This document shows, piece after piece, positions 8,691-17,674 of a stretch of 21,941 bases of DNA. Origin of the DNA: a virus; UHGV virus genome UHGV-0105323. One strand, written 5' to 3'. How positions within the stretch are numbered: position 1 is the stretch's first letter; each line of letters opens with the position of its first letter. The translations under genes were made by a program, and so were the position numbers. The notes under the pieces are model-generated. The model was not told the origin of the DNA, did no database searches, and worked only from the letters and a program-made list of their open reading frames with translations.

Positions 8691-8891
8691 TCATTTCTCG
8701 TTATTTTTCATGCTGGCCGGGCGCAGATGCGTTGCATCTGTTGCCAGCCTTCTCCTGCAGGCTTCAATAACCCACGCTGAAAAGTTACCGGACCCTTTAT
8801 GCTCAAGGGCTATGTTGATTTGTTCAATTATGTGATTGGGGAAACGGATATTGCGGGTTGTGGTTCTGCGGGTCCGGTTTTTCGATGACAT
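8691..8891 (-). CDS. Ribbon-helix-helix (CopG/Arc-like) DNA-binding protein
   Basis: 66-aa reverse-strand ORF with AAAGGAAA RBS; RNIRFPNHIIEQINIALEHKG...FSAWVIEACRRRL fits a beta-strand, helix, loop, helix RHH pattern. Divergent from the HNH gene. Confidence 0.5.
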   Translation of the reverse strand: MSSKNRTRRTTTRNIRFPNHIIEQINIALEHKGSGNFSAWVIEACRRRLATDATHLRPASMKNNEK

Positions 8892-9588: not shown

Positions 9589-10152
9589 GTGCTGACAACG
9601 CAAAAACGAAAATTTGCGCTGGCGCTCATGTCCGGGAAAAACAAAACAGCGTCAGCCATTGCCGCCGGTTATTCGGCGAAGACCGCCAGGGTTAAAGGCT
9701 CGCAGCTGGCAAAAGATCCGGAGGTGCTTGCGTTTATAGCCCGTAAACAATGCGAGACGGTGGAGGTGGATGAGGTTCCTGTTTACCGGCAGAAAAAATC
9801 AGAGCAGGAGGATAAACCCCGTCGCCGTGAGGCGGCTGCAATACCACAGCCGGACGAAAACAATCCGGAGATGCCACCGTCCGCGGTGATGTCTCCTGGT
9901 ATTGAATATATGGAGGATGGTCTTCCCGATCCGGTGAAAGCCATGGGGCGGATCCTGGTGGAAAACCTCTGCATTGATCCGAAACTGGCACTGGATGCGG
10001 CCTGGCGTCTGGCGCAGTTCACGCACCATAAAAAAGGGGATACCGGGAAAAAATCGGCAAAAGGTGATGCCGCGAAAAAAGCGGCTAACCGTTTTGCGGT
10101 GCCACCGCCACCCCGACTGGTGGTGAATAACGATAATGAGGGCAACGGATGA
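9589..10152 (+). CDS. Terminase small subunit
   Basis: GTG start with GGAGGAGG RBS; N-terminus (KRKFALALMSGKNKTASAIAAGYSAKTARVKGSQLAKDPEV) resembles phage terminase small-subunit HTH regions; HNH-cos-TerS synteny. Confidence 0.7.
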   Translation: MLTTQKRKFALALMSGKNKTASAIAAGYSAKTARVKGSQLAKDPEVLAFIARKQCETVEVDEVPVYRQKKSEQEDKPRRREAAAIPQPDENNPEMPPSAVMSPGIEYMEDGLPDPVKAMGRILVENLCIDPKLALDAAWRLAQFTHHKKGDTGKKSAKGDAAKKAANRFAVPPPPRLVVNNDNEGNG

Positions 10153-10406
10153 TACCTGTATGGAGCACAGCCTGCCCGGACTGGGCAGAGCGCCTGAAAA
10201 AGGGGCTGTCGATTATTCCGGATCCGATTTATCCGGACGAGGCCGCACATGCCCTGGCGATTTTTAAACAACTGCGGATTGTGGATGCACCTGGTAGCCC
10301 TACGTTCGGGGAGTCCTGTGCACCGTGGGTGGCGCAACTGGGCCTCATCCGTACTGCAGGAAATATCAAAAGTTCTTATGAATGCCGCGATTGTCAACGG
10401 AATTAA
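10149..10406 (+). pseudogene. Terminase large subunit, N-terminal fragment (truncated at a deletion junction)
   Basis: ORF overlaps the TerS stop (ATGA) and opens MIPVWSTACPDWAERLKKGLSIIPDPIYPDEA..., which resembles TerL N-termini of HK97/P27-like phages, but recognisable sequence runs only about 60 codons before the frame changes into tape-measure sequence. Junction estimated near 10330-10375. Confidence 0.6.
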
Positions 10407-10842
10407 GACGGCGGCAAACGGTATGTCCGGTGCGGGAGGATTTATTGGCAGCATTGGTGACTGGCTGGGCGGTGCGGTGGCCAATGCAAAAGGCGGCGTG
10501 TATACCTCGGCAAACCTGAGCGCGTACAGCAACAGTATTGTGGATACGCCCACGTACTTTGCCTTTGCAAAAGGGGCCGGGCTGATGGGGGAAGCAGGAC
10601 CTGAAGCCATAATGCCCCTGACCCGGGCGGCGGATGGCTCGCTGGGTGTACGCGCGGTGGGCAGTATGAACGGCAGTGCCGGTCTGGTGTATTCCCCGGT
10701 CTACCATATCGCCATTCAGAATGACGGGGCCAACGGTCAGATAGGGCCGGAGGCGGCAGGCAGCCTTGTTCAGCTGATTGACCAGCGGGTGCAGGCGGTG
10801 ATGCTGTCCATGCGACGAGACGGAGGAATGCTGAGTGGCTGA
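10249..10842 (+). pseudogene. H: Tail tape-measure protein (lambda H-like), C-terminal fragment
   Basis: Gly-rich C-terminal segment (AAIVNGIKTAANGMSGAGGFIGSIGDWLGGAVANAKGGVYTSANLSAYS...) of the kind found at lambda-H-like tape-measure C-termini, ending 8 nt past the start of M exactly as H precedes M in lambda. The first roughly 30-40 codons of this frame are out-of-frame TerL DNA. Confidence 0.65.
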
Positions 10843-11176
10843 GATAAAAACGCTGCATCTGGTCCCGCGTGAAGGGATGCAGGTGAGTGAGAAACCGTCG
10901 GTGGTGAGGGTCCGGTTTGGTGACGGTTATGAACAGCGCCGACCGACGGGACTGAATGCCCGACTGAAGACATTTCAGGCGGTGTTCCGGGTGACGGATG
11001 AGGCGACCCGGCGCTGGCTGGATGAATTTTTATCGTGGCATGGTGGTTACCGTGCCTTTTTGTGGAAACCCCCGAAACATAACCGGACGGTCAGGGTGGT
11101 GTGCCGGGAGTGGAGTATTACGGATAACGCCAGGTACAGCGATTTCAGTTGTATGATGGAACAGGTAATAAGATAA
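10835..11176 (+). CDS. M: Minor tail protein M
   Basis: 113-aa ORF (GTG start) with VRVRFGDGYEQRRPTGLNARLKT...FLWKPP motifs matching lambda gpM; H-M-L synteny. Confidence 0.85.
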   Translation: MAEIKTLHLVPREGMQVSEKPSVVRVRFGDGYEQRRPTGLNARLKTFQAVFRVTDEATRRWLDEFLSWHGGYRAFLWKPPKHNRTVRVVCREWSITDNARYSDFSCMMEQVIR

Positions 11177-11382: not shown

Positions 11383-12546
11383 ATGAAAAAAATGACAGTG
11401 GCACTTTCAGCTGTGGCAGCAGCTGTAATTTTTGCAGCGGGGGCGCAGGCTGCAGAAGTATACAATAAAGATGGCAATAAACTTGATGTGTATGGGCGTG
11501 CAACTGCACTCCATTATTTCTCCAGTGATAAGGGGGATGATGGAGATAAGACATACGCACGTCTGGGCTTTAAAGGTGAAACTCAGATTAATGACCAGTT
11601 GACTGGTTTTGGTCAGTGGGAATATCAGTTCTCTGGTAATAAAGCTGAATCAGAGGGTGCTGCGGGTAATAAAACCCGTCTTGCATTTGCAGGTCTGAAG
11701 TTTGGTGAGTTTGGCACCATTGATTATGGTCGTAACTATGGTATTGCGTACGATGTTGGTTCTTATACTGACGTATTACCAGAGTTTGGCGGTGATGGCT
11801 GGACCCAGACCGATAACTTCATGACAGCCCGTACTTCCGGGGTATTAACCTATCGTAATACAGATTTCTTTGGGCTTGTCGATGGCCTGAATTTTGCGGC
11901 ACAGTACCAGGGTAAAAATGATCGGGGTGATCTCCGGAAAGCTAATGGTGATGGTCACGGTTTCTCAGCCAGTTATGAATATGAAGGTTTTGGTATCGTT
12001 GCCGCATATATTAATGCGGACCGAACCAATAATCAGGAAAAAGGTCTGAATGGTACTCTGACGATTGAACAAACTGATCCTTTAACCGGTAAAGTGACTG
12101 AAAAGCAGATCGTTGTTGATTCCGGTAGTGTTGCAAAAGGTAAACACGCTGAGATGTGGGGAGTCGGACTAAAATACGATGCTGACAACCTTTACCTGGC
12201 TACAACATATTCCGAAACTCAGAATCTGACGACCTTTGGTGATAAAGGAGTTGCAGATAAAGCGCAAAACTTTGAAGCGGTACTGCAGTATCAGTTTGAT
12301 TTTGGTCTGCGCCCGTCCCTGGCCTACCTTCAGTCCCGCGGACAGGATGTTATGGTTGGTGGTGTGAACCATGGCGATCAGGATCTGGTTAAATATATTG
12401 ATGTCGGAGCGACTTATTACTTTAACAAGAATATGTCCACCTATGTTGATTATAAAATTAACCTGATTGATGAAAGTGAATTTACCCGGAAAGCCGGTGT
12501 TGCGACAGATAATATCGTTGCTGTGGGTATGACTTATCAGTTCTGA
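11383..12546 (+). CDS. General diffusion porin (OmpC/OmpF/PhoE family; NmpC/Lc-like prophage porin)
   Basis: 387-aa ORF with signal peptide ([38 protein letters not shown]), typical porin strands ([35 protein letters not shown]) and C-terminal ...VGMTYQF. Preceded by about 200 bp of very AT-rich DNA and followed by a strong terminator; inserted between M and L. Confidence 0.85.
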
Positions 12547-12755: not shown

Positions 12756-13454
12756 ATGCAGGATATTCACGAAGAAAGTCTGAACGAGTCGGTTAAATCA
12801 GAGCAGTCACCGCGGGTGGTGCTCTGGGAAATCGACCTGACGGTGCAGGGCGGTGAGCGGTATTTTTTCTGCAATGAGCTGAATGAAAAAGGGGAGCCGG
12901 TCACCTGGCAGGGGCGGCAATATCAGGCATACCCGATTGACGGTAGCGGTTTTGAGATGAGCGGGAAGGGCAGCAGTGCCAGACCGTTGCTGACGGTGTC
13001 CAATCTGTTCGGTCTGGTCACCGGGATGGCGGAGGATTTGCAGAGCCTGGTGGGGGCCACGGTGGTCCGCCGCCGGGTGTATGCCCGTTTTCTGGATGCG
13101 GTGAATTTCGTTGCGGGCAATCCGGAGGCGGACCCGGAGCAGGAGCTGAGTGACCGCTGGGTGGTGGAGCAGATGTCGGAGCTGACAGCCATGACGGCCT
13201 CGTTTGTGCTGGCCACACCGACCGAGACGGACGGGGCGCTGTTTCCCGGTCGTATCATGCTGGCGAACACCTGTATGTGGACCTACCGCTCTGATGAGTG
13301 TGGTTACACGGGCAGGGCTGTGGCGGATGAGTTCGATAAACCCACCACGGATATCCGTAAGGACAGATGCAGCAAGTGCATGCGCGGGTGTGAACTGCGC
13401 AGGAATGTCGGCAATTTTGGCGGTTTCCTTTCCATTAATAAACTTTCGCAGTAA
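12756..13454 (+). CDS. L: Minor tail protein L
   Basis: Start at the internal ATG (MQDIHEESLNE...) corresponding to the lambda gpL start; strong similarity throughout (VVLWEIDLT..GGERYFFCNE.NEKGEPVTWQGRQYQ.YPI.GSGFE...GNFGGFLSINKLSQ), including the conserved Cys cluster. Confidence 0.85.
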   Translation: MQDIHEESLNESVKSEQSPRVVLWEIDLTVQGGERYFFCNELNEKGEPVTWQGRQYQAYPIDGSGFEMSGKGSSARPLLTVSNLFGLVTGMAEDLQSLVGATVVRRRVYARFLDAVNFVAGNPEADPEQELSDRWVVEQMSELTAMTASFVLATPTETDGALFPGRIMLANTCMWTYRSDECGYTGRAVADEFDKPTTDIRKDRCSKCMRGCELRRNVGNFGGFLSINKLSQ

Positions 13455-13463
13455 TGGATTATG

Positions 13464-13486
13464 CCCACCGTCAGGTGGGTTTTTTA
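13464..13486 (+). terminator. Rho-independent terminator after L
   Basis: CCCACC-GTCA-GGTGGG followed by TTTTTTA. Confidence 0.55.
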
Positions 13487-13510
13487 TAAGGAGTAATCAT
13501 GATTTACCCA

Positions 13511-14047
13511 TCAAACAACCCACCAGTTTGCCTGATTGGATGCCAGCCTTGCAGTTTTTATGGAATTAATTATGCCATGCTCAAGAGCCTTGTTAGCATC
13601 CAAAATGGTCGAGTCTGCTATCAGGGATGCCCACCTAATATGGGTTCCGATGTCGATATTGAACGTCTCAACGAAGCGATCAAGATCGTTATCGAGGCAT
13701 TTCCCGTACTCTCTCAATCTGGCATGGTCGGCGGCTGGGGAGGCAAAGCACCATAATAGAGGATGTAACAGGAATCTTGATAATGGGTTTGCGAAACGTT
13801 CTGAGCCAGCCAGGAAAACGATATTAGCTATGGATTCAACATTGCTTATGTTGTGAGTTCTAACGGTAACAGGGAGTGACTTAAGAAAGTTATACGCAGT
13901 AAAGCCAGCGGCAGTTTCCCCTCCCTGACTTGATATATGGATATTTAATTCAGTTGCGCCTTGAGATAATGCGGTGAGACAGTGGTTCTGAAGTTGCCCA
14001 ACAGTGGCAGTGTTAACGGGGCATAAGAAATGAATTGTGTGCAGCAT
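13511..14047 (-). CDS. ClpP-fold serine peptidase-like protein (S14/ClpP-crotonase superfamily), accessory
   Basis: 178-aa reverse-strand ORF whose start overlaps the stop of the upstream Mnt-like gene (TAATG). Hand alignment to ClpP: ISSQGGETAAGF vs INSPGGVITAGM, a Ser at the nucleophile position (NVESIAN vs GQAASMG) and a His at the catalytic His position (RFLLHPL vs RVMIHQP). Confidence 0.5.
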   Translation of the reverse strand: MLHTIHFLCPVNTATVGQLQNHCLTALSQGATELNIHISSQGGETAAGFTAYNFLKSLPVTVRTHNISNVESIANIVFLAGSERFANPLSRFLLHPLLWCFASPAADHARLREYGKCLDNDLDRFVETFNIDIGTHIRWASLIADSTILDANKALEHGIINSIKTARLASNQANWWVV

Positions 14048-14295
14048 TATTTTTCATCCTTAGCATACATGGTCTTTAGCGTCTCAAGTAGCGCCTCTTT
14101 GAATTTATCAGCTTCTTGGTTAGCGAATCCTTCAAGTGAGCGAGAGCCATCAAGATTATCAACATGTTTTTGAAGGATAAGCACGATCTCTGAGTTCATT
14201 GATCTGCCGTTTTTATCCGCTTCTTGCTGAATGCGTTTCTTTAAATAGTCTGGAATCCTAATCCCCAATGGACTGATATCTCTTGCACCTTTCAT
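14047..14295 (-). CDS. mnt: Mnt-like ribbon-helix-helix repressor
   Basis: Start at the internal ATG behind AGGAGGAG, giving 82 aa, the same length as P22 Mnt. MKGARDISPLGIRIPDYLKKRIQQEADKNGRSMNSEIV... has the Arc/Mnt RHH N-terminus (NGRSMNSE). Divergent from the arc-ant pair across an operator-rich intergenic region. Confidence 0.65.
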   Translation of the reverse strand: MKGARDISPLGIRIPDYLKKRIQQEADKNGRSMNSEIVLILQKHVDNLDGSRSLEGFANQEADKFKEALLETLKTMYAKDEK

Positions 14296-14317
14296 TTCTC
14301 CTCCTGCACGCTGTGCG

Positions 14318-14392
14318 TAGCTACACAGTGTAGGCAAAAAATTTTTGACTTTAAATAAACACGGTGTAGTATTTAGTTATCACGGTGTAGCA
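14318..14392. promoter_or_regulatory. Divergent promoter/operator region of the immI-like module
   Basis: Perfect palindrome CTACACAGTGTAG (14321-14333), direct repeats CACGGTGTAG at 14360 and 14381 spaced 21 bp, and a -35-like TTGACT (14345-14350) 16 bp upstream of a -10-like TAGTAT (14367-14372); four GTGTAG half-sites in all. Confidence 0.5.
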
Positions 14393-14404
14393 AGTGAGGT
14401 GGAA

Positions 14405-14545
14405 ATGAAAGTTAGAGACATCGCTCCATTAGGGATTCGTATCCCGCCAGAGATTAAAGAAAAATTGAAGGAAAAGGCTAAGGAGGAGGGCAGGTCTTTA
14501 AATTCAGAAATAGTGCAGCGTCTTATTCGCAGCCTAAAAAGTTGA
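14405..14545 (+). CDS. arc: Arc-like ribbon-helix-helix repressor
   Basis: 46-aa product [46 protein letters not shown] with GAGGTGG RBS; same RHH signature as P22 Arc (NGRS.NSEI); immediately upstream of ant. Confidence 0.6.
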
Positions 14546-14575
14546 AGCCCCAACTGCTGGAACAGTCGGGGCTTC
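14544..14575 (-). terminator. Hairpin in the arc-ant intergenic region; reverse-strand terminator-like (possible sar-type antisense RNA terminator)
   Basis: Perfect 8-bp inverted repeat GAAGCCCC...GGGGCTTC; read on the reverse strand it is followed by AACTTTTTAGG. Confidence 0.35.
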
Positions 14576-14606
14576 GGTATCAACAAATCAGATAGGAATT
14601 ATTGAT

Positions 14607-15536
14607 ATGGCAAGTTTAGCAAAGTCAACATTAAATTGCACTAACAGCATCACCATTTCAGACGTCAAGATTCATATGGATTCAGAGGGGCGTTACTCGC
14701 TTAATGACCTGCACAAGGCATCAGGTAAAGAGCGTCGTCATGAGCCTGCTGCGTGGCTGCGACTCGAACAAACCAATGAGTTAGTTCAAGAAATTCTAAA
14801 TACACAGATGTGTGTATTTAAAAATGGCGATAACTTTAATTCTTCAGAATCGCAGATTAAGAAGCCAATGGACTCTAAGAAGGGTCGCTACGGAGGCACC
14901 TACGTGTGCAAGGAGCTTGTTTACTCCTACGCCATGTGGATTAGCGCAGCCTTTGCGCTGAAGGTTATCCGTGCATATGACGCAATGGTTACTACCACAC
15001 AAGAGAGGAAGGCTATTGGCGGTAAAACTTCAGTAGCTGAACGCACACCTCTACGCGATGCAGTAAACATGCTGGTAGGAAAGAAAGGACTTCGCTATGA
15101 CGATGCATACAATATGGTTCATCAGCGTTTTGGTATTGACAGCATTGATGAACTTTCAATTGAACAAATCCCGCTGGCCGTAGAGTACATCCACAGGGTA
15201 GTGCTTGAAGGTGAGTTCATTGGCAAACAAGAGAAGAAAACCAACGAGCTTTCCGCAAAAGAAGCAAACAGCCTTGTATGGCTATGGGATTATGCCAACC
15301 GCTCACAGGCATTATTCCGCGAACTGTATCCGGCGCTAAAGCAAATTCAATCGAACTATTCTGACAGGTGCTACAACTACGGCCATGAGTTCTCGTATGT
15401 TATTGGAATGGCGAGAGACGTTTTAATCAATCACACACGAGATGTTGATATTAATGAGCCAGATGGACCAACGAATCTTTCCGCATGGGTAAGGCTTAAG
15501 AGCAAAGAGTTGCCGCCTTCACTGCATCACTACTAA
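14607..15536 (+). CDS. ant: Antirepressor with N-terminal KilA-N domain (Ant-like)
   Basis: 309-aa ORF; N-terminal region ([25 protein letters not shown]...[19 protein letters not shown]...[29 protein letters not shown]) fits the KilA-N/Ant fold; size and position after arc match P22 Ant. Confidence 0.65.
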
Positions 15537-15555
15537 CAGATTACCAACGAAATGA

Positions 15556-15578
15556 CCCAGCCTCGGCTGGGTTTTTTA
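15556..15578 (+). terminator. Rho-independent terminator after ant
   Basis: CCCAGCC-TCG-GCTGGG followed by TTTTTT. Confidence 0.6.
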
Positions 15579-15590
15579 TCAGGAGTTCTC

Positions 15591-16328
15591 ATGCTCTATA
15601 GCAATATATTGGCACATGCCCGGCGGTGTGCGCCTGCGGAGTCGTGCGGCTTCGTGGTGAGAACGCCGGAGGGGGAGCGGTATATCCCTTGTGTGAATAT
15701 TTCCGCAGAGCCGGAGGCGTATTTTCGTATCGCACCGGAAGACTGGCTGCGGGCAGAGATGCAGGGGGAGATTGTGGCGCTGGTTCACAGTCATCCCGGT
15801 GGTCTGCCCTGGCTGAGCGAGGCTGACCGGCGGCTGCAGATAAAAAGCGCACTGCCCTGGTGGCTGGTCAGCCGGGGTGACATTCACAAATTCCGCTGTG
15901 TGCCACACCTGACGGGACGGCGCTTTGAGCACGGGGTGACGGACTGTTACACGCTGTTCCGGGATGCTTATCATCTGGCGGGGACTGAAATGCCGGATTT
16001 TCATCGCGAGGATGACTGGTGGCGCAACGGTCAGAACCTTTACCTGGACAATATGGAGGGAACGGGCTTTTACCGGGTGCCCCTGTCCTCTGCACAGGCG
16101 GGCGATATTCTGCTGTGCTGCTTTGGTGCTTCGGTACCGAACCATGCCGCCATTTACTGCGGCAACGGTGAGCTGCTTCACCATCTGCCTGAACAACTGA
16201 GTAAACGGGAGAGGTATTCCGAAAAATGGCAACGACGAACGCATTCTGTCTGGCGTCACCGCCACTGGCACGCATCTGCCTTCACGGGGATTTACAACGA
16301 TTTGGCCGCCGCCTCAGCCTGTATGTGA
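15591..16328 (+). CDS. K: Tail assembly protein K (JAB/MPN plus NlpC/P60-like)
   Basis: Start at the internal ATG (MLYSNILAHARRCAPAESCGFVV) with AGGAG RBS; MPN motif (ALVHSHPGG) and a downstream Cys/His peptidase-like region as in lambda gpK. The 3' end overlaps gene I by about 100 nt in another frame, so the exact stop is uncertain. Confidence 0.8.
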   Translation: MLYSNILAHARRCAPAESCGFVVRTPEGERYIPCVNISAEPEAYFRIAPEDWLRAEMQGEIVALVHSHPGGLPWLSEADRRLQIKSALPWWLVSRGDIHKFRCVPHLTGRRFEHGVTDCYTLFRDAYHLAGTEMPDFHREDDWWRNGQNLYLDNMEGTGFYRVPLSSAQAGDILLCCFGASVPNHAAIYCGNGELLHHLPEQLSKRERYSEKWQRRTHSVWRHRHWHASAFTGIYNDLAAASACM

Positions 16329-17146: not shown

Positions 17147-17674
17147 TTATGGGATGATACCACAGCCCATTCTTGCACCGCCGCCGCCGAGTGGATCTGG
17201 ATGGTCATGATAGTTGTCACCGCCAATGTGGATCATAAGAGACCGTCCGCTTATTTCTGTTAATTCTTTCAGTTTTGGTGCGAGAACCGGATAGTTTGCT
17301 TTTCCGTCATGAGTCACGTACAGAGCCGGGAGATCGCCCAGGTGACCATCAGGAGACCAGGGACCAAGATGTTTTCCAGTCTGTTTCGGGTCAAAGTGAC
17401 CGCCAGCTGCTAATGCCGCAACAGATACTCCATCTTTCAGAGCCGGCGCGCAACTTCCCTTTTCGTGCACATGAAATCCATGAATGCCCTGAGGTAAAGA
17501 GTGCAGATCTGGTGTGAACAGGAGACCATAGCTGGTCTCCTGGATAGTTATTGTTCCGGCGCTCACCTCTTTACCATCGGCATTAACAAGGTTCATGGGG
17601 ACTTTTATTGTGGCGGCATATCCACATGATGTTGCCAGCACCATTGCAATAGCAGCAAGACTTTTACGGTTCAT
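17147..17674 (-). CDS. sodC: Periplasmic Cu,Zn superoxide dismutase
   Basis: 175-aa ORF with signal peptide ([20 protein letters not shown]) and Cu/Zn-SOD metal-ligand motifs ([28 protein letters not shown]); reverse-strand insert between tail genes I and J. Confidence 0.9.

Follow-up and report, generated by a model that had tools for sequence, protein, structure and literature searches.

The window analysed here, a 21,941-nucleotide stretch of the virus genome UHGV-0105323, is the late region of a lambdoid Escherichia coli prophage. Its segment 13464-15577, low in G+C, is very probably (about 0.85 by our estimate from the sequence) a functional-looking allele of the immI module, or "ant moron", of phage P22, carried as a terminator-bounded cassette at the junction of tail genes L and K. 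Established here are the identities and order of the genes, a match to the sar antisense RNA family, promoter- and terminator-like sites, and operator repeats with conserved positions. The gene identities, the gene order and the sar match agree with the preliminary description of this DNA, which had proposed a P22 immI-like mnt/arc/ant module between L and K. The genes and boundaries are the following.

12756-13454, plus strand: tail gene L (Pfam Phage_tail_L PF05100, 5.9e-92)
13463-13480, plus strand, with a T-run to 13487: left-boundary intrinsic terminator, hairpin GCCCACCGTCAGGTGGGT followed by the T-run (terminator scan)
13511-14047, minus strand: ClpP-like gene, 178 amino acids
14047-14295, minus strand (read from 14295 to 14047): mnt-like gene, 82 amino acids (Pfam Arc PF03869, 6.1e-8)
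14405-14545, plus strand: arc-like gene, 46 amino acids (Pfam Arc PF03869, 5.2e-13, 49.1 bits versus a cut-off of 20.4)
14607-15536, plus strand: ant gene, 309 amino acids (Pfam KilA-N and P22_AR_C)
15554-15573, plus strand, with a T-run to 15580: right-boundary terminator t_ant, hairpin (terminator scan)
15591-16328, plus strand: tail gene K (Pfam JAB and NlpC/P60)

The gene order and orientations, as well as the place of the promoter Pant, are the same as in P22 immI. The divergently oriented mnt and arc genes, separated by 109 bp (90 bp in P22), encode two ribbon-helix-helix (RHH) repressors. Both proteins belong to the Pfam Arc family and their homology to P22 is real, in line with the earlier claim of an Mnt-like protein of 82 and an Arc-like protein of 46 amino acids. 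The former is 33% identical to P22 Mnt over residues 4-79, which is essentially the full length (BLASTP alignment of 80 amino acids); the alignment includes the C-terminal helix region, the C-terminal extension is homologous to the Mnt tetramerization region, and the best PDB match is 1MNT. The latter is 43% identical to P22 Arc over 37 amino acids (BLASTP) and matches Arc structures in PDB, but is shorter than the 53-residue P22 protein. A further difference from P22 is that the DNA-reading heads of the two repressors are almost identical to each other. Their N-termini agree in 57% of positions over 35 amino acids, and the stretch of 11 residues that makes up the N-terminal arm and beta-strand (RDISPLGIRIP in the Mnt-like protein) differs at a single position. 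At the DNA level, the 5' coding ends of mnt and arc are inverted copies of each other over about 45 bp that take in both start codons (14252-14298 versus 14402-14445; 78% identity over 32 nt plus a perfect 10-mer), which would fit an origin of the one head from the other by duplication or gene conversion.

Outside the cassette, a 66-residue open reading frame (8691-8891, minus strand; MSSKNRTRRTTTRNIRFPNH...) lies just upstream of the HNH endonuclease and terminase genes, on the opposite strand to them. It may encode another small RHH-type regulator: the same position in the collinear prophage of E. coli TOE17 is held by a gene annotated as YlcI/YnfO family, a name that the arc-like gene of the cassette also bears at NCBI.

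The third gene of the module encodes the KilA-N antirepressor that had been described downstream of arc. Pfam places KilA-N at residues 17-127 (nt 14655-14987) and P22_AR_C at residues 209-281 (nt 15231-15449), and the protein matches PHROG 2812 and anti-repressor PHROGs; a PDB sequence search with Ant gave no match. Residues 140-309, the C-terminal 170 amino acids, are 85% identical to P22 Ant (BLASTP), whereas the first ~139 residues are unrelated to it, with KilA-N in the place of the P22_AR_N domain of P22. Judged by these alignments Ant is a chimera, P22-like in its C-terminal 170 amino acids only. Other alleles of the cassette carry Ant with Bro-N or P22_AR_N. Similarity to all three P22 proteins, proposed earlier as a check on the identity of the module, was thus detected for Mnt, Arc and, in its C-terminus only, Ant.

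The spacer between arc and ant aligns closely with P22, above all across a terminator hairpin that is near-identical in the two, and is covered on the opposite strand by a predicted RNA of the same Rfam family as P22 sar.

14605 to 14540, minus strand: sar RNA, 66 nt (Rfam RF00262, 67.6 bits versus a gathering score of 43, E 2.6e-12, model positions 1-68 of 68)
14641 to 14636 (GTGCAA), 17 nt, and 14618 to 14613 (TAAACT), minus strand: putative promoter Psar, within ant codons 3-12

A sar-type antisense RNA had been suspected from the sequence; the Rfam model scored above its threshold on the predicted strand and gave an RNA of 66 nt with its end at 14540, where the preliminary description had expected it. 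For the family, an RNA of 68-69 nt from a promoter of its own in the 5' end of ant is typical. It covers the ant ribosome-binding site as well as the spacer (the ant ATG is at 14607), and its 5' hairpin loop exposes UUCCU, complementary to the ant Shine-Dalgarno sequence. The 3' hairpin (14575-14544, 14 pairs) and the U-run behind it (tail AACTTTTTAG) form an intrinsic terminator on the minus strand only, just as the preliminary description had noted a hairpin at 14544-14575 with a T-run on the reverse strand alone. The predicted fold (minimum free energy -31.8 kcal/mol, z -6.7) has the same two-hairpin shape as P22 sar. When ten sar alleles were folded singly, this shape was kept although their 5' stems are of four different sequences. 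From the same 10 alleles aligned by MAFFT, RNAalifold recovered only the 3' hairpin, because the alignment had set the 5' hairpins one base out of register; the conservation of hairpin 1 thus rests on the separate folding of each allele.

The putative Psar is as far from the ant ATG as Psar is in the P22 annotation (GTGTTA-17-TATACT). Fourteen sar alleles were gathered with the pattern ATGnnnAG[TC]nTAGCAA, comprising the start codon and the -10 sequence; as the criterion of collection, this pattern is not independent evidence. The ant genes it matched have KilA-N, Bro-N or P22_AR_N as N-domain, as would be expected if these bases were part of the regulatory module rather than of the protein domain. 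The hairpin at 14544-14575 could instead be a mere terminator or RNA-stability element, for example one stopping antisense read-through, and not the 3' end of a dedicated antisense RNA; the predicted Psar indeed has a poor -35 sequence (GTGCAA) and was missed by the consensus promoter scan. However, the full-length Rfam match takes in the 5' hairpin, which alleles with other ant leaders retain through compensatory changes in its stem, and the TAnACT -10-like sequence at the P22 Psar offset belongs to a pattern shared by ant genes with three unrelated N-domains. We consider such a restricted role of the hairpin highly improbable and a sar RNA the better reading.

The point of insertion lies exactly between the stop codon of L and the start codon of K, and each end of the cassette has a terminator hairpin. 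Megablast homology to P22-like records begins at query position 65, corresponding to window position 13464, and stops at 15577, that is, at both terminator hairpins; the P22-like podoviruses and prophages matched over the cassette are Emek, phiv205-1, EC.P3 and E. coli CE10. In lambda, 5 nt separate the L stop codon from the K-frame ATG, and the cassette is inserted exactly at that junction, where it supplies K with a new ribosome-binding site, as seen in the junction alignment. The left hairpin is 9 nt past the L stop codon, and the same hairpin stands behind L in Shiga toxin (Stx) phages. On the right, the t_ant hairpin and T-run are followed by CAGGAGTTCTC and then by the K start codon at 15591. 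The G+C content of the cassette is 41-46% versus 57-62% in the tail genes. It has, in sum, the features of a moron, namely insertion between normally adjacent genes, terminators at both ends, the promoter Pant inside and deviant base composition; flanking terminators and embedding in a late operon are also shared with P22 immI. The whole region 13400-15650 is 100% identical to E. coli TOE17.

The preliminary description had correctly seen terminators bracketing the module and the tail operon split between L and K, and both terminators were found on the plus strand. The range it gave, 14296-15580, holds for the features within a base or two but not for the extent of the unit, which is 13464-15577 and includes mnt and the ClpP-like gene; the mnt-like open reading frame (14295 to 14047) falls just outside the start of that range.

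The two ends of the cassette (13463-13498 and 15554-15593) are alike, each consisting of a hairpin, TTTTTTAT, [A/C]AGGAGT and ATG. The end hairpins agree at 13 of 18 positions, and the left copy yields an ATG at 13499 which is probably spurious. These paired ends may be a recombination "boundary sequence" for gain, loss or exchange of the cassette.

The control region between mnt and arc contains a repeated motif, CACNGTGTAG, and the following putative sites.

14321-14333, no strand: putative operator site 1, the perfect palindrome CTACACAGTGTAG (CTACAC-A-GTGTAG)
14357-14369, no strand: putative operator site 2 (aaACAC-G-GTGTAG), covering the Pant spacer and -10 sequence, at the position of P22 O_arc
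14378-14390, no strand: putative operator site 3 (tatCAC-G-GTGTAG), at about +1 to +12 of Pant, at the position of P22 O_mnt
14345-14372, plus strand: Pant-like promoter (TTGACT, 16 nt, TAGTAT; 9 of 12 matches in the promoter scan), aligned with the annotated P22 Pant
14332 to 14327 (-10, TACACT), minus strand: putative promoter Pmnt (TTTAAA-17-TACACT), predicted, with the -10 sequence within the site 1 palindrome

Thus, the palindrome and the two direct repeats 21 bp apart that had been noted earlier are present, the former at 14321-14333 and the latter (CACGGTGTAG) at 14360-14369 and 14381-14390, 21 bp from start to start. Exact copies of CACNGTGTAG number 4 in the whole 21.9-kb window and represent three sites, since the palindrome is read on both strands, and all of them lie in 14321-14390; the chance expectation is ~0.17 by a uniform-model estimate. 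With one mismatch allowed, 6 occurrences in the window versus 3.5 expected were not significant, and the signal is in the clustering of exact copies. A repeat search in the mnt-arc intergenic region found no second repeated motif.

Alignment of the intergenic region to P22 sets the second repeat on O_arc and the third on O_mnt, whose core (CCACGGTGG) has CACGGTG in common with the motif of the window. The site 1 palindrome lies in a 27-bp segment missing from P22. P22 has two distinct operators, O_arc between the promoter hexamers and O_mnt at the start of Pant; here, one motif is found at three sites, of which site 1, the palindrome, is additional and lies towards mnt. The overlap of site 2 with the Pant -10 sequence comes from the TAG of the motif, which supplies the first letters of TAGTAT. 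Allele classes A, A' and B, defined below, have the Pant sequence GCAAAAAAATTTTGACT in common, and the TACACT of the putative Pmnt is kept in class B despite its other operator motifs. A P22-like placement of Pmnt, with its -10 sequence overlapping the Pant -35, was also considered; the hexamers there are poor (TATTTA / ATAACT), and TTTAAA-17-TACACT was preferred.

For comparison, 106 related loci were taken from IMG/VR with the Mnt-like protein and an Mnt alignment, and their divergent RHH pairs and intergenic regions were extracted. Classes A (to which the window belongs), A', C, D and E each have three sites centred on CAY-N-RTG. The spacing between sites 1 and 2 in these five classes is 36 bp (37 bp in one case), the Pant -35 sequence is 18 bp from the site 1 centre, and sites 2 and 3 are 21-22 bp apart in A, A', C and D and 16 bp apart in E. 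In the diverged allele L021, whose Mnt is 72% identical, the three motifs are kept with the palindrome unchanged and the flanks altered. Class B proteins have other N-terminal arms and beta-strands, and in their intergenic regions the same positions are taken by other repeats (GATAGCAAAGTG inverted, GTATTCRA). That head and motif vary together while the positions relative to the promoters stay fixed is good in silico evidence that the repeats serve as operators.

Which of the repressors would use them is a separate matter. Because the DNA-reading N-termini are near-identical and only one motif family is present, the Mnt-like and Arc-like proteins may well read the same three sites, differing mainly in oligomerization, with the tetramerization tail on Mnt only; we give this an even chance. 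In agreement with it, classes A', C and D combine similar Mnt and Arc heads with a single half-site family. It is possible, though we think it unlikely, that only the Mnt-like protein reads the CACNGTGTAG sites and the Arc-like protein uses a separate, unrecognised operator, as in P22. The two distinct and unrelated operators O_arc and O_mnt of that phage, the Arc N-termini of classes B and E, which are unlike those of Mnt, and the sequence around site 2 (TTTAAATAAACAC), which aligns with the left half of P22 O_arc, speak for such an arrangement. It is opposed by the identity of 10 of the 11 arm and beta-strand residues in the two proteins of this allele, these residues forming the short N-terminal region that reportedly determines Arc versus Mnt specificity in P22 (Knight and Sauer 1989; Youderian et al. 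1983), by the lack of a second repeated motif in the intergenic region, and by the match of similar heads to one half-site family in classes A', C and D as well.

The start codon of the ClpP-like gene overlaps the mnt stop codon (TAATG), and because of this overlap the protein should be made together with Mnt in the lysogen. It has a Pfam CLP_protease domain (2.2e-11), is N-terminally truncated, and is homologous to PpClpP1 of Pseudomonas plecoglossicida (PDB 9UXT, E 1.6e-35), with Ser and His of the catalytic triad aligned. PpClpP1, itself a ClpP truncated at the N-terminus, assembles into a tetradecamer with a wide pore and has low peptidase activity (PMC12900304). PADLOC has no model for this gene. 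Homologues with 52-58% identity were found in Klebsiella, Proteus, Chromobacterium and metagenomes as stand-alone genes with no adjacent RHH gene; they lie in the N-erf region or at the lysis/terminase junction and run against the phage operon next to them. Since the homologues are solitary elsewhere and many immI alleles lack the gene, we treat it as an independent lysogen-expressed moron lodged downstream of mnt, an accessory passenger rather than a core part of immI; the P22 module has orf59a and sieA in that place. The distribution suggests that the family is a widespread lysogen-expressed moron. A role of the ClpP-like protein as a fourth layer of Ant control, by proteolysis, was considered and rejected as a default on the same grounds, the homologues having no RHH neighbour and several immI alleles no such gene.

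A quite different interpretation would make the RHH pair toxin-antitoxin-like or partition-like, or concerned mainly with regulation of the ClpP-like gene, with Ant being incidental. PHROG labels both RHH proteins "partition protein ATPase", RHH proteins are common as antitoxins and a weak FitA/RelB-like match was seen, and the ClpP-like gene is translationally coupled to mnt. The label, however, is an inherited mis-annotation, borne in RefSeq by P22 Mnt itself; no toxin or ParA-like open reading frame was found in 13464-15577 by the open reading frame list, Pfam, PHROG or PADLOC; and the ClpP-like gene, which many alleles of the module lack, is elsewhere a lone gene without an RHH partner. 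This interpretation is hardly tenable, and the pair is best read as Mnt- and Arc-like repressors of an immI module.

Cassettes of this kind are known from P22-like phages. The "ant moron" of epsilon34, CUS-3, UTI-1 and related types is a variable, independently transcribed late-operon cassette, usually with ant, described only between genes 16 and 9, and the CUS-3-type morons seem to have no arc (Villafane et al. 2008, PMC2629481). The cassette of the window differs in having a 46-residue arc gene and in its lambdoid L/K location, which is not in that description; arc of the CUS-3-type morons may simply have been missed earlier. P22 itself is a podovirus with immI between genes 16 and 9, whereas the L/K junction belongs to a siphovirus. 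The two contexts are bridged by the P22-like prophage of E. coli CE10, whose cassette is 97.6% identical over 13464-15577, with identical Mnt-like and ClpP-like proteins, and sits at the classical immI position between a gene-16-like DNA-transfer gene and the tailspike gene.

The L/K modules of Stx-converting and other lambdoid phages (for example Stx2a_WGPS8, YYZ-2008 and 2851) have the same insertion point, both flanking hairpins, a divergent RHH pair, an Ant with P22_AR_C and a sar-like two-hairpin element. They differ in having other Mnt/Arc alleles, a TGGYRCCA-type motif and P22_AR_N on Ant, and in lacking the ClpP-like gene. With 29.5 bits, their sar-like RNA, which occupies the corresponding place, stays below the Rfam threshold. 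In Stx2a_WGPS8, the RefSeq coding sequence of Ant starts at 2163, overlapping arc and crossing the sar-like hairpin; judged by alignment with other alleles, the ATG at 2244 (ATGACTAGTTTAGCAA) is more likely the true start.

Among the IMG/VR loci, repressor alleles of class A and class B each occur in both L/K and 16/9 contexts, with or without the ClpP-like gene. The N-domain of Ant varies within the repressor classes of the survey: some loci have KilA-N, some P22_AR_N, and in some neither was detected. PhiR12_1, a class A phage, has Bro-N. The cassette itself is thus mosaic. The repressor allele is uncommon, being present at 80% or more query coverage in 19 of 5,426 complete E. coli genomes. 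The same cassette is found in the plaque-forming phage isolates PhiR12_1/4/5, where its genes are annotated as hypothetical; a literature search on the PhiR12 phages gave nothing relevant. In the open-access literature, a search for accounts of immI at the L/K junction, or of sar in phages of the lambdoid or Stx kind, gave only protein-level mentions of "Ant", which is not proof that they are undescribed.

Antisense control of an antirepressor is also known from immI of P1 and P7 (c4 - icd - ant), where an RNA masking the ribosome-binding region curbs the antirepressor (PMC12197685). There, however, the RNA is unrelated and processed from the same transcript, RHH proteins of the Arc/Mnt type are lacking, and the antirepressor is another protein.

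The prophage in which the cassette resides is incomplete. Collinearity of the window with the TOE17 prophage ends at 10331, 183 nt into the gene of the terminase large subunit. The sequence continues there with the C-terminal end of the tape-measure gene (open reading frame 10249-10842), and M (10835-11176), an ompC-like porin gene and L follow. The gene of the terminase small subunit (9589-10152) is present, and only the first ~183 nt of the large subunit gene are left. Because portal, head and most tail genes are missing, the prophage, as far as the sequence tells, is a defective deletion derivative that cannot make virions. The junction at ~10331 was found in no complete E. coli genome of the collection.

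The decay of this prophage bears on the role of the cassette, which could be either a recent passenger or still trans-acting on other prophages. That it is an intact-looking but functionally irrelevant passenger, recently acquired by a decaying prophage and without a current regulatory role, would accord with the truncation of the terminase large subunit gene at ~10331, its fusion to the tape-measure end and the absence of the junction from the complete E. coli genomes of the collection. Against it, the cassette is intact in its three open reading frames, three operator sites, sar RNA and two terminators, and these parts match those of more complete prophages and of viable phages exactly or at 95-100% identity. 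An antirepressor can moreover act in trans on other prophages: in the Gifsy/Fels prophages, LexA-controlled antirepressors are reported to act between co-resident prophages (Lemire et al. 2011, PMC3121763), a behaviour that is relevant here because the prophage of the window is defective. The Gifsy/Fels antirepressors differ in being small, unrelated proteins under control of host LexA rather than of an RHH pair and an antisense RNA. On balance an irrelevant passenger seems rather improbable, and we retain the assignment of 13464-15577 as a functional-looking immI allele.

Several points weigh against that assignment. The predicted Pmnt (4/6 + 4/6) and Psar (3/6 + 4/6) are weak by consensus and fall under the promoter-scan threshold. 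The palindrome is upstream of the Pant -35 sequence, a position without a counterpart in P22. The N-domain of Ant is not that of P22, so the target range cannot be assumed. Finally, with the portal and head genes and most tail genes lost, the module may no longer matter to the element.

A more specific, and tentative, proposal is that this allele and those of classes A', C and D represent a sub-type of immI. Arc in it would be essentially a headpiece-only copy of Mnt; three phased operators at fixed spacing (36/21 bp), all of one half-site family and recognized by either protein, would lie on Pmnt -10, Pant -10 and Pant +1; and oligomeric state together with site occupancy, not two DNA specificities, would set the switch. 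The unit would move between the podovirus 16/9 and siphovirus L/K positions via its terminator-hairpin ends, and in a defective prophage it would survive as a trans-acting inducer.

The mechanism outlined below takes from homology to P22 which protein binds which site, the activities of the promoters and the target of Ant. In the lysogen, leftward transcription from Pmnt would yield Mnt and the co-translated ClpP-like passenger, and Mnt bound to the CACNGTGTAG sites over the Pant -10 and +1 would silence arc-ant. Upon infection or derepression Pant would fire; Arc would then build up and shut Pant, and probably Pmnt too, via the palindrome on the Pmnt -10 sequence. The 66-nt sar RNA, transcribed from a promoter inside the first ant codons, would pair with the ant ribosome-binding site and block translation. 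Ant would bind prophage repressors of the CI/C2 type, inactivating them non-covalently, and could in this way induce, or prevent the establishment of, its own or other lambdoid prophages. In the TOE17 prophage, an XRE-family regulator gene is divergent from a gene for a helix-turn-helix-domain protein at the place expected for CI/Cro, as read from the annotation; the window does not include that region.

Beside the cassette, the tail operon has two other morons, an OmpC-type porin gene between M and L (11383-12546, plus strand; Porin_1, 1.3e-140; G+C 41-45%) as the second and the Cu/Zn superoxide dismutase gene sodC between I and J (17147-17674, minus strand, i.e. the opposite one) as the third. 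In the Q-to-lysis region, three tRNA genes and a match to the Rfam small RNA STnc100 (134.7 bits) were found at 1566-1813 and 2654-2862 on the plus strand, upstream of a gene for a 653-residue SASA-family esterase (3085-5046).

The genes of the cassette are already annotated at family level in public genomes, and the current understanding is not overturned: the departures from the P22 prototype in operator logic, Ant N-domain, ClpP-like passenger and genomic context are variations within a well-known system. The presence of sar in lambdoid siphovirus genomes slightly widens the known range of this family, which the literature searched describes only for P22. The comparative operator map provides a natural set for the co-variation of RHH heads and half-sites, with at least five combinations at fixed positions. 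Since antirepressors let one prophage sense or trigger another, an intact Mnt/Arc/sar/Ant switch bears on prophage cross-induction, and sister alleles are found at the same L/K junction in many Shiga toxin phages, where induction affects the release of toxin phage.

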